64,000 nucleotides of DNA. It comes from Eledone cirrhosa (lineage: Eukaryota). Where the stretch lies: the NCBI GenBank assembly GCA_964016885.1, contig OZ024753.1:4774001-4838000 (forward strand), given 5' to 3'. Positions 10,159 through 59,663 of the stretch are shown in pieces. Within the stretch, counting starts at the first letter, position 1, and each line of letters starts with the position of its first letter. The notes under the pieces were generated by a model. That model was not told where the DNA came from. It did no database searches and saw nothing but the letters and a program-made list of their open reading frames with translations. Both the position numbers and the translations under genes were made by a program.

Positions 10159-10246
10159 TCCTCGACTACGTAGTTTCGTGGCATAAACAAAAACAATATA
10201 TCAAAGATATAGAGTCCTTGCGAGGTCTGCCGACTTATCAAGAGGA
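10159..10246 (-). ncRNA. Type I hammerhead ribozyme, U3-A8 core, extended stem II (copy 1)
   Basis: Minus strand: TCCTC-TTGATAA-GTcGGCA..TGCCAC-GAAA-CTACGTAG-TC|-GAGGA; stem I 5 bp, palindromic stem III ACTACGTAGT, GUC cleavage triplet (cut between 10164 and 10163). Confidence 0.85.
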
Positions 10247-10749
10247 TACCTCATTTTACTAGTCTCAAGAACGCGTCTACACGACGTGAGAAAGAATCCC
10301 AAAAGGCGGAGGGGGAGATAGTCACGCGATATAACGGTCGAGAAACAGAGCTAAGCCTCCTATAACCACGAAGAAAATACCACGGAGGCGGAGGGGGTAT
10401 TCATATCGAGGCCGCAGAAGAGGTAGTGAAGAAGGCGAGAAGTATGAGTAATGGAAGCTTTCCAGTTGTCCCCACACTTCAAAGATTGCTCGACCAGAGG
10501 GAGTTATTAATATATTTATAAACACACAGATACATGCGGACACACACATATATACATGAATGCATCCGCACCCAACTGTGAGTTAAGGGTGCCAACTTCA
10601 CCGATGTTGCTCAATGAATGACTGGGACAGACCAATTCAGTTTGAACCAGACTGAACCAGTATCAGAGTTAAAAATACATTATGAAGAGAGAAGAAACAT
10701 TTAGATATAATTAGTAATAAAATGTATCATACCTAAACTGCTCCTAAAT

Positions 10750-10837
10750 TCCTCGACTACGTAGTTTCGTGGCATAAACAAAAACAATATATCAAAGATA
10801 TAGAGTCCTTGCGAGGTCTGCCGACTTATCAAGAGGA
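10750..10837 (-). ncRNA. Type I hammerhead ribozyme, U3-A8 core (copy 2)
   Basis: Identical to 10159-10246, shifted by 591. Confidence 0.85.
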
Positions 10838-11963
10838 TACCTCATTTTACTAGTCTCAAGAACGCGTCTACACGACGTGAGAAAGAATCCCAAAAGGCGG
10901 AGGGGGAGATAGTCACGCGATATAACGGTCGAGAAACAGAGCTAAGCCTCCTATAACCACGAAGAAAATAACCACATATATATATATATATATATGTGGG
11001 GGGGGATATATGTATGTATGTATAGTATATTTGGCAATATACCGTGTGTTTAATTAAAAACATATATATATATATATATATATAATGAATGCATAGATAA
11101 CTGAGTAATTAATTTATTATATATAGGTATATGACGATTTGATCACATGTGTGATTATATACACACTTTCCCGTTAATTATTATATATTTCCCCTTATGA
11201 ATAGTATCATGAGTTTCAATTTATGCGTTCCTATGTGACTAAATTTTTCAGAAAATACAAAACAAATAGAACGTTATATAGAAATGATACTTGATTCAAA
11301 ACAAAGAAACTTACAGCAGAACACAAACAAATGAGTCTGTTAAAATATACAAATAAACAAAGTTATTAAATCTAAAGTTAAACAATGGGAGAGGAAAAGG
11401 TTTTGACTTCGTTCTTTGCTATAAAGATTTGGTGATAATATAAAATACAGGATAATGCTTAATTAGATTATATAATTTAGTTAATTAGAATTTCTGTGAA
11501 AACAGCAGCACTGCTCTCGCGAGCAGATAAAGACATAAGTGAAGAAAGCATTTTAAAAAAGCCTAAGAAAATGTTTGTAAATACTAAAGAAAAGCTGAAA
11601 TATAGAGATTAAAAGTTAAAGAACATGTAAATACGGTAATATAATTTAGAGGATATTTAACAATGCTTACGTTAGGATGATAAGGTAGAAAATAAATATA
11701 TAAGTCAAATATATTCTGGTCTTTTGCTACGATATAATTGTTTGTTTGTGTTGGTGCTTTTATATATATATATATATTCATTTATTATTCCACAATGCTT
11801 CAAGCAAACTTCAATACTCTCTTATATTTATTTATATATATATATATATATATATCGTTTCTGAATTTGTTTAGCAAGATTCTTATTGGCAACATGACCC
11901 TCCCAAAGTATAACAATATATATATATATATATATATATATATATATATATATATATATATAT

Positions 11964-12157
11964 ATAGGAACGAATAGGACCCCGACGGCTGAGCTCAAGC
12001 CGTTTCGACGGCTAATTCTGGACAAAATTAGCCGTCGAAACGGCTTGAGCCCAGCCGTCGGGGTCCTACTCGTTCCTATCAACCACTTTACTACCCTAAG
12101 TATTGAGTACTTTGGTGCGTTATGGTCCATCTGGTTCCTTACCACATTTCCTTCGTT
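11964..12157 (+). mobile_element. Fold-back HHR element family B: 54-bp-arm hairpin plus ~78-bp tail, in (TA)n
   Basis: 11964-12017 is the reverse complement of 12026-12079 (2 mismatches); contains only the 3' half of the HHR (GAAACGGCT..AGCCGTC|GGGG); tail homologous to 59197-59273, 40787-40868 and 36189-36245. Confidence 0.9.
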
Positions 12158-12178
12158 ATATATATATATGTATATATA

Positions 12179-12255
12179 CAGAGTGTCCCACCAAAATGTA
12201 TACATACTTCAACAGCATTCTAATAAATGTGTGTATACATTTTTGGGACATCCTG
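12179..12255. mobile_element. Tiny palindromic Tc1/mariner-type MITE (~77 bp)
   Basis: CAGAGTGTCCCA..AAAATGTATACA versus TGTATACATTTTTGGGACATCCTG; TA on the left flank. Confidence 0.65.
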
Positions 12256-57340: not shown

Positions 57341-57977
57341 AATATTCGTTTTTTCTGTGTCCCGGTGACCTTGCTCCGGCACAGCAAATTTTACGGTTTG
57401 GTCGACTCTTGTTACGAGCTGCATGGCCCTAGTAATTCTTTAGCTATTTGGATGCTGTCTTTTCCAACGGTTGCTTAGGTAAAAGATGAGTTTGTTTTGT
57501 CATAGTAATGATAGTGGTAGTGATAATGTTAGTGGTAACCCTTTTATCATTAGTCTCATTGGCGACGGTGGTGGTTGTGCTATTAATAGTGAGAGTGGTG
57601 GTAGTGGTGGTTGTGTTTTTGCGTTTGTTTTGATGGTTGTTGTTGTTGTTATTGTTGTTATTAGTGCTATTTTTTGTTGTTGTGTTGTTCTGGCTGTTTT
57701 CTATGTTCAAATTAAAGGTTTGTTTTTTTAGTTAGTGGTGGGTGTTCATATATATATATATAGGAAATGTATTTTGAATGATTATTTCATTCTCTGAACA
57801 ATTGTGACTGTAACGTCTTGTGTATGAAGTGGCGTGCATCTCCTTTCATTTCCATTGTTTTACCAAACATTGGCATGTATTTGTATTTCAAATATAGGTG
57901 TTACCCTTAAAATAAAGAGGGAGATATTATTTAAATAAACTTTAAAAAAGCATTAACAATAATGTGTAAATATTAAA

Positions 57978-58091
57978 TAGTAGTAGTAGTAGTAGTAGTA
58001 GTAGTAGTAGTAGTAGTAGTAGTAGTAGTAGTAGTAGTAGTAGTAGTAGTAGTAGTAGTAGTAGTAGTAGTAGTAGTAGTAGTAGTAGTAG
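57978..58091. repeat. (TAG)n microsatellite
   Basis: Direct read. Confidence 0.97.
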
Positions 58092-59288
58092 TTGCGATAT
58101 TCATAGAAGAAAATGTACTCAACTCTCTGATCTGAATCATCGTAAAATGTTTGGTCAAAGAATACGGTAATATTAGAATATATAACTTGAAAACAAGTGA
58201 ATGAATCTCATTTCCTTTTACATAAAAGTCTAATAAAAACAGCAAACAACGCAAACAAGTAGAAATAATTATAATAAGCAAAATATAAATATTTATTTTT
58301 TCGATCGATTGAATAACGTTTCTATGTTGGTGTTTGATTTAATTTTAGATTCTAGCTTCGAAGGCATCCATAAATTTATATTTCTTTCTCACGCTATCTC
58401 ATTGTCTCTCACTAGCAATCTCATTCTCCTTCTCTCTTCTCCCTTCATGATTCATTCTAGCTCATTTCACATATATTATTGTATGTGTATGTATCTTATG
58501 ACTATGTGTTGATATATACATATTTACACACAAGTAAACCTATATATATATATATATGTGTGTGTGTGTGTGTGTGTGTGTGTGTATACATATATGCATA
58601 TGTATACATATATGTGTGTATATACATATATGTGCATATATATATGTGCGTATATACATATATGTGCATATATATATATATATATATATATTTATATATA
58701 TATATATATATATATATATATATATATATATATATATATATATATATATATATATATATATATATATATATATATATATATGAGTGTGTGTGGTTATCAA
58801 TGTATTAACGACAATCGATTTCGTTTTTGTACTTTTCTATTTCATCACATTCGTTCCCTATTTTATTCAATAAACTTATCTTTAGCAAACTTTATATATA
58901 TATGTGTGTGTACGTGTATCTGTATGTGTGTGTGTTTGTGTAAGTGTGAGAGAGAGTGTGTATATGTGTGTTCCTGTAAATGATATTTATTATAAATATA
59001 TGCTCTTTATTTTCTGTCAATACATTTCATTTATTACAGTCACAGGCGCAAACATATATGTATGTAGGTTTGTATATATATCACATTTATAAATATAATA
59101 ATGTATTTGTATGCCATATATATACATATATATATATATATATATATATATATATATATATATATATATATATATATATATATATATATATATATAACGA
59201 AGGAAATGTGGTAAGGGACCAGGTGGACCATAACGCACCAAAGTACTCAATACTTGAGGTAGTAGAGTGGGTAATAGGAACCAGTAAG

Positions 59289-59382
59289 ACCCCGACAGCT
59301 GAGCTCAAGCCGTTTCGACGGCTAATTCTGGACTAAATGAAAATTTATCCTGGTATTTAAATAGCCGATCTTCTCAAGGGGT
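59289..59382 (-). ncRNA. Type I hammerhead, U3-A8 core (left arm, minus strand)
   Basis: Mirror image of 59571-59663. Confidence 0.82.
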
Positions 59383-59570
59383 AATTCCATATATGGTCAA
59401 AGTGATTGTCAAAACTCAGTAGTAATTCTGTGGTTGCAAATTAGTAGGGGAGATGGTGGCTAAACCTGCCTTTTCTCCTACTGGCAGGTTTAGCCACCAT
59501 CTCCCCTACTAATTTGCAACCACAGAATTACTACTGATTTTTGACAATCACTTTGACCATATATGGAATT

Positions 59571-59663
59571 ACCCCTTGAGAAGATCGGCTATTTGAATAC
59601 AGGATAAATTTTCATTTAGTCCAGAATTAGCCGTCGAAACGGCTTGAGCTCAGCTGTCGGGGT
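59571..59663 (+). ncRNA. Type I hammerhead, U3-A8 core, long stem II (right arm, plus strand)
   Basis: ACCCC-TTGAGAA-GAtCGGCTA..TAGCCGTC-GAAA-CGGCT(tgagctc)AGCTG-TC|-GGGGT; cut after 59658. Confidence 0.85.

Follow-up and report, generated by a model that had tools for sequence, protein, structure and literature searches.

According to PMC3884650, the tertiary pair between positions 3 and 8 of the hammerhead ribozyme is formed in the active molecule, and its natural covariation from C3-G8 to U3-A8 was first reported by Perreault et al. 2011 (PMC3088659), where ribozymes with U3-A8 are stated, with reference to that paper's ref. 32, to be active in vitro. Cervera and De la Pena (2014; PMC4209133) described ~1,300 U3-A8 and ~2,000 C3-G8 minimal motifs in the Cercyon Penelope-like elements (PLEs) of Schistosoma mansoni, and in the Hydra clade of PLEs the 27 families of File S2 in PMC8557442 (Craig et al. 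2021) show C3-G8 in 25 of the 25 with a listed hammerhead, including Hydra-1_oBim. A 2026 preprint (Li et al., bioRxiv 10.64898/2026.07.22.740005) argues, in addition, that animal retrozymes derive from PLEs. Here we describe a 64-kb window of the Eledone cirrhosa genome (contig OZ024753.1, positions 4,774,001 to 4,838,000; the window is this whole stretch of 64,000 nucleotides), which contains six hammerhead motifs of type I, all built on a UUGANAA (U3-A8) core and distributed over four element families designated A to D; five are on the minus strand and one is on the plus strand. We consider it very probable that all six are U3-A8 type I hammerhead folds at PLE 3' terminal repeats, and that U3-A8 serves as a near-equivalent compensatory substitute for C3-G8. 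The features concerned are as follows, with coordinates given as positions in the window and hammerhead spans running from the core to N17.

9910..10975, minus strand: family A element, a non-coding 591-bp unit in 1.8 tandem copies, 5'-truncated, at a (TA)n site
10755..10832, minus strand: family A hammerhead 1, with UUGAUAA, a 5-bp stem I, a long stem II, palindromic stem III ACUACGUAGU and a GUC site, predicted cut after the C at 10755
10164..10241, minus strand: family A hammerhead 2, identical to hammerhead 1, with GUC, predicted cut after the C at 10164
24068..24334, minus strand: family B, a solo pLTR (3' terminal repeat) from a Neptune/Nematis-type PLE, with 98.5% identity to the element at locus L076
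24220..24257, minus strand: family B hammerhead, with UUGAAAA, a 5-bp stem II, ACCGGU stem III, a 2-bp stem I and GUC
28370..28532, minus strand: family C, the 3' end of a PLE of Neptune/Nematis type, for which intact 775-aa open reading frames (ORFs) exist elsewhere in the genome
28460..28489, minus strand: family C hammerhead, with UUGAAAA, 4-bp stems I and II, ACCGGU stem III and GUA
59191..59678, both strands: family D, a 5'-truncated head-to-head inverted pLTR pair of a Hydra-clade PLE, at (TA)n and with uneven 3' ends
59294..59377, minus strand: family D hammerhead of the left arm, with UUGAGAA, a 5-bp stem I, a near-palindromic stem III and GUC
59576..59658, plus strand: family D hammerhead of the right arm, with UUGAGAA and GUC

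An initial annotation, made from the letters alone, had listed all six motifs, although its coordinates marked the low end of each motif rather than the UUGA and carried no strand. A strict type I scan (stems I and II of at least 4 bp each, G10.1-C11.1, and GAAAC..GUH) recovered five motifs in the window, all of them U3-A8, and no motif with any core in 25 block-wise dinucleotide shuffles. The family B motif was missed because its stem I has only two contiguous pairs; the paired stem I that had been claimed for every motif was overstated for B. All six combine a Watson-Crick 3-8 pair in an N3-UGA-N-N8-A core with GAAA and NUH, and the motifs of A, C, and D also have three helices, an open helix I, and G10.1-C11.1. 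A scan for the scrambled order (simple GUH..GAAA..CUGA) gave 0 matches in the window and one weak match across all loci.

Family C, with 11,895 exact matches in the genome (0 in the reversed control), is the largest single family counted, and its hammerhead lies ~1 kb behind intact 775-aa ORFs encoding a reverse transcriptase (RT) and a GIY-YIG endonuclease (L187-189). Among 25 endonuclease loci, the C hammerhead was found downstream on the same strand in 15 and inverted upstream in 1, another family's motif was present in 2, and 7 had no motif within 1.5 kb. Neptune/Nematis-type elements are recognized by GxKF, DKG, a CX2-5CxxC linker, and CCHH in the endonuclease, and the 775-aa ORF contains GLKF, DKG, a CGRSNCGTC (CX4CxxC) linker, and a C/C/H/H set in the endonuclease. 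At L187 (G000:C4:28495000-28504500), two identical intact 775-aa ORFs stand in tandem with inverted pLTR pieces, and many more frames of 771-775 aa occur genome-wide; family C is very young and probably active. Family B (1,929 genome matches; reversed control 0) flanks a frameshifted ORF at L076 whose protein is 52-60% identical to that of C. In a search with a core-free pattern, 28 of 30 B copies carried UUGAAAA with a matching flank and the remaining 2 carried UCGAAAA, and the 2-bp stem I is the state of the whole family. The ACCGGU stem III in both families and the 52-60% protein identity therefore make B and C relatives, that is, sister Neptune/Nematis-type PLEs, and the claim of four unrelated families is not supported. 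The accompanying statement that stems and flanks differ completely was too strong, since CGAAACCGGT and the ACCGGU stem III are common to B and C.

Family D (2,552 genome matches; reversed control 0) is represented by an intact element at L093, in which two hammerheads 3,545 bp apart surround a 789-codon frame. The encoded protein has RWR, DKT, CNCPDRSIC (CxCX5C), CNLC (CxxC), and CKH (CxH) and lacks CCHH; judged by these sequence motifs and the (TA)n sites against the definition in PMC8557442, family D belongs to the Hydra clade. A homolog search with the D protein returned 609 relatives, those listed being 37-52% identical, and when positions 3, 4, and 8 were left free all 100 of the D matches listed were U3-A8. 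The layout of endonuclease-containing PLEs, namely a single ORF for RT with a C-terminal GIY-YIG domain and direct pLTRs bearing hammerheads, is seen at L093 (D), L076 (B, frameshifted), and L187 (C). A link to Penelope-like RTs, as the initial annotation had proposed, is therefore borne out by hammerheads that flank or follow PLE ORFs in families B, C, and D.

Family A has the form of a non-LTR retrozyme (LTR, long terminal repeat), consisting of non-coding tandem units that each contain a type I hammerhead. Its core region has 4,901 genome matches and none in the reversed control, 99 of the 100 matches listed were U3-A8 in a search that allowed any base at positions 3, 4, and 8, and the full-length matches listed are 99-100% identical. 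Insertions end at two fixed 3' positions, are truncated to varying extents at the 5' side, carry inverted 5' segments, and sit at TA sites; this is the form reported for PLEs, and family A likely borrows PLE enzymes. An older subfamily, ~70% identical, retains UUGAUAA while a C-G pair of stem I has become U-A and the palindrome ACUGUACAGU stands in place of ACUACGUAGU. With window positions 9930-10500 as the query, closed contigs of 621 and 620 nt in runs X4/X6 (labelled as other organisms) each correspond to one A unit at a depth of ~8, which fits both circle and tandem DNA.

Across the genome (3.0 Gb, microsatellite-rich), we counted cores on forward and reverse strands with a matched pattern in which only positions 3 and 8 were varied, and with the reversed pattern as control. 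U3-A8 gave 12,593 matches (control 3,650) and C3-G8 gave 14,561 (351), whereas the mismatched combinations C3-A8 (400; control 394) and U3-G8 (495; 481) were at control level and cores with a purine at 3 and a pyrimidine at 8 (393; 715) were background. A short-loop pattern yielded 26,205 U3-A8 (control 1,046) and 30,950 C3-G8 (225) matches. From the matched, short-loop, and family counts, U3-A8 thus makes up ~40-50% of the cores in the genome, and a search restricted to CUGANGA would miss that share of the motifs. Because the patterns miss loops >42 nt, families A and D come in addition, as would canonical motifs with long loops. The compensatory pairing proposed across families is supported by the counts for the four cores. 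Many of the mismatched cores listed are single-mutant copies of known families and the remainder resemble chance matches; among the matches listed (first 100 per search), none pointed to an amplified hammerhead family in which positions 3 and 8 are unpaired. It is this absence among the matches listed that constitutes the evidence for selection, as copy numbers reflect amplification. Two repeated U3-G8 sets were considered as wobble intermediates and rejected. One (110 matches) lies beside ORFs resembling long interspersed elements, mostly has GAAG instead of GAAA, and is without stem I; the other (45 matches) runs antisense to a long ORF, which we take to be Helitron-like. Both sets are chance matches in other transposons. 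NUG as a cleavage site in U3-A8 motifs (2,608 matches; control 100) was also discarded, most of these being family F8 read past its GUA site.

Further U3-A8 families that were sampled (F4, F7, and F8) are linked to Hydra-type ORFs, and among C3-G8 families G2 accompanies a Hydra-type ORF and G4 and G5 accompany Neptune-type endonucleases, so that both cores are present in both PLE clades. Protein trees of 24 rows (x_L199b and x_L206 dropped for bad fragment joins) and of 12 rows hold the elements of this genome without published reference proteins and give neither root nor direction of change; both require at least two core changes, which the starred branches make unavoidable. When the six U3-A8 rows of the 12-row tree were constrained to one clade, the constraint was rejected (approximately unbiased [AU] test, p=7.6e-12), so that the core must either have switched two or more times or have passed from one clade to another, contrary to the single U3-A8 radiation envisaged at first. 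Since the published Hydra motifs are all C3-G8, U3-A8 is suggested to be derived within the Hydra clade. Sequence likeness points to families F5 (U3-A8; L085/L082) and G3 (C3-G8; L112/L113), which have a common stem II GUCCCAC..GGAC and a similar stem I and 3' flank, as a candidate sister pair for a core switch in place.

A model consistent with these observations can be proposed. Cleavage by the hammerheads after the GUC and GUA sites would likely release unit-length RNA from the element's tandem transcript, probably with the ribozymes acting as dimers joined through the palindromic stem III, and the element's RT and GIY-YIG endonuclease would then carry the cut RNA through target-primed reverse transcription into (TA)n. 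A dimeric mode of action in tandem transcripts has been proposed for short motifs with a palindromic stem III (PMC4209133), and helix III of the B and C hammerheads needs a dimer. The dimer model fits because stem III self-duplexes are favourable (-8.3 to -26.3 kcal/mol) while the monomer folds of B (constrained hammerhead +5.5 vs free -9.0 kcal/mol) and C (-0.4 vs -7.5 kcal/mol) are unfavourable. U3-A8 probably reached master copies at least twice, whether through a pair of transitions toward A+T or because the ribozyme module was exchanged between clades, and selection on master copies would keep the Watson-Crick 3-8 pair; the swap itself is most simply read as near-neutral. A more far-reaching version, which we put forward only tentatively, is that a genome-wide force, whether a mutational bias toward A+T while PLEs are reverse-transcribed or selection that favours slower cleavage, repeatedly flipped C3-G8 to U3-A8 in Hydra and Neptune-type lineages independently of one another, and in their retrozymes. 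If so, this genome would amount to a replicated experiment of nature on how a ribozyme active site evolves by compensation, and about half of the self-cleaving RNAs in genomes of this kind would escape standard searches with CUGANGA.

Several points weigh against reading the six motifs as functional U3-A8 hammerheads of PLEs and U3-A8 as an equivalent of C3-G8. The monomer folds of B and C are poor, as given above, and stem I of B is only 2 bp, although a helix I of 2 bp is known in the Penelope element of Drosophila virilis (PMC4209133). Minimal hammerheads of PLEs cleaved only weakly in vitro in published work, and its authors leave other functions possible. Among the listed 150 of 316 window matches Rfam showed no hammerhead, and in four element loci, including two C3-G8 ones, none reached the gathering score. 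No coding partner of A was found, and across 25 loci of its older subfamily PLE fragments were present in 5, with inconsistent placement. The genome counts come from patterns that test no stems, overlap, and may count one motif in several registers, and a few amplified families dominate the totals; the matched-pattern control for U3-A8 (3,650) is high. The links of F4, F7, and G2 to ORFs are one locus each, and the trees were built by a quick method from broken frames read with X and partly from endonuclease-only fragments, the 12-row tree (one row per family and three unlabelled rows; LG+G4) also including compositionally odd rows.

Some of these points favour other explanations. The poor B and C monomer folds and the weak in vitro cleavage by minimal hammerheads of PLEs, with the other functions left possible, would suit motifs that have little or no catalytic activity and persist as a structural signal recognized by the PLE RT; this seems quite improbable to us given the strict Watson-Crick covariation of a pair that is formed in the active conformation, the retention of GAAA and NUH, and an NUG excess that is mostly one family in the wrong register. 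Chance matches in AT-rich sequence, to which the AT-rich UUGANAA and the high matched-pattern control might seem to point, are refuted by the empty shuffles, by family-specific pattern controls of 0, and by the fixed position of the motifs behind PLE ORFs.

Alternatively, U3-A8 may be an adaptive tuning, in which the weaker pair slows or gates cleavage and leaves more full-length or dimeric RNA for retrotransposition, and hence more amplification. That family C, the largest family counted and one with many intact ORFs, is U3-A8 agrees with such tuning, as does the recurrence of U3-A8 in many families of both clades, but C3-G8 families are equally abundant and both changes are transitions toward A+T in a region of ~31% GC, for which an adaptive cause is unneeded, and we regard this explanation as unlikely. 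We are similarly doubtful of a single U3-A8 origin after which template switching or 3' capture carried the ribozyme module between Hydra and Neptune-type PLEs, such that polyphyly in the protein trees overstates the number of origins. This scenario is compatible with those trees, and PLE families are nested in each other at common (TA)n sites in many of the fetched loci; however, the flanks of A, D, and B/C have no sequence similarity beyond chance, the architectures of stems III and I follow the clade, and the resemblance of G3 to F5 in stem II suggests switching in place. Compensatory substitution of the 3-8 pair in PLE hammerheads thus remains our preferred reading.

The window also contains canonical elements and remnants of family D, as follows.

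42458..43490: region of the canonical (C3-G8) PLE family G4, with inverted pLTR
42882-43436, plus strand: GIY-YIG endonuclease fragment of G4
42602, minus strand: G4 minimal hammerhead with CUGAUGA within the inverted pLTR, stem II decayed
28095-28216: second G4 copy, with a hammerhead with decayed stem II at 28214 (minus strand)
11964..12178: older inverted fragment of family D, truncated inside loop II and without the UUGAGAA strand
36189-36254 and 40726-40875: core-less ends of family D

As stem II is decayed in the two canonical cores of the window that retain a remnant of it (42602 and 28214), intact U3-A8 motifs do outnumber intact C3-G8 motifs in the window, as was claimed at the outset, but genome-wide C3-G8 is slightly ahead in both patterns. 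The family C insertion lies ~150 bp from the second G4 copy. Between TA runs at 27531-27610 is a near-perfect 80-nt hairpin, with a weak, below-threshold Rfam score for mir-548, which is probably either a small transposon with inverted repeats or a PLE end in inverted orientation. Fragments at 51722-52135, 56558-56944, 44418-44705, 55462-55971, and 5876-6175 are presumably non-LTR retrotransposon ORFs or their antisense; Pfam gave no match for two of these and none in the four window ORF fragments overall. Elsewhere in the genome, hammerheads form tandem arrays of a 466-bp C3-G8 unit (G000:C1:5738326-5752444, ~31 copies) and of a 316-bp U3-A8 unit (C1:6519941-6521556), and a young repeat with long ORFs, which we assume to resemble Helitron Rep/helicase, occurs in ~4.2-kb tandem arrays (L267-L286).

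In sum, nature here puts the 3-8 tertiary pair of the hammerhead to a covariation test on a large scale, with tens of thousands of paired cores and mismatched cores at background. With canonical descriptors, about half of the PLE ribozymes in this genome go uncounted, and sister families with either core make the tuning of retrotransposition by core strength testable. New here are the presence of U3-A8 in Hydra-clade elements and its polyphyly, for neither of which a report was found in a search that did not include Lunse 2017 and Arkhipova 2017, which may list U3-A8 PLE variants. Novelty was nonetheless overrated in the initial annotation, as a comparable U3-A8 share in Schistosoma PLEs has been on record since 2014; with the core swap and its abundance in PLEs already published, our findings are an extension and not a new system.

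Compared with the animal non-LTR retrozymes treated by Cervera and de la Pena (2020; PMC7229834) and in the 2026 preprint, family A is alike in its non-coding tandem unit with one type I hammerhead each and in a GC content <45%, and dependence on PLEs is proposed there; it differs in a unit of 591 bp vs ~300 bp and in its U3-A8 core. Family D matches the Hydra-clade PLEs described in PMC8557442 in its RWK-like and DKT motifs, CxCX5C linker, absence of CCHH, endonuclease CxxC and CxH, (TA)n insertion, and 3' hammerhead, but measures ~3.5 kb where <3 kb is stated for the clade, and D, F4, F7, and F8 carry U3-A8, with C3-G8 in G2. The "several examples" of U3-A8 mentioned in PMC3088659 were rare in that study, in contrast to ~40-50% of the motifs in this genome. 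Closest are the Cercyon elements as presented in PMC4209133, which are similar in the core swap, the location in PLE terminal repeats, the share of U3-A8, and the predominance of single truncated or inverted copies, whereas in the motifs described here stem III is palindromic and stem II is not preceded by an extra base, and they are linked to Hydra-clade and Neptune/Nematis-type ORFs and to a tandem retrozyme, in tens of thousands of copies.

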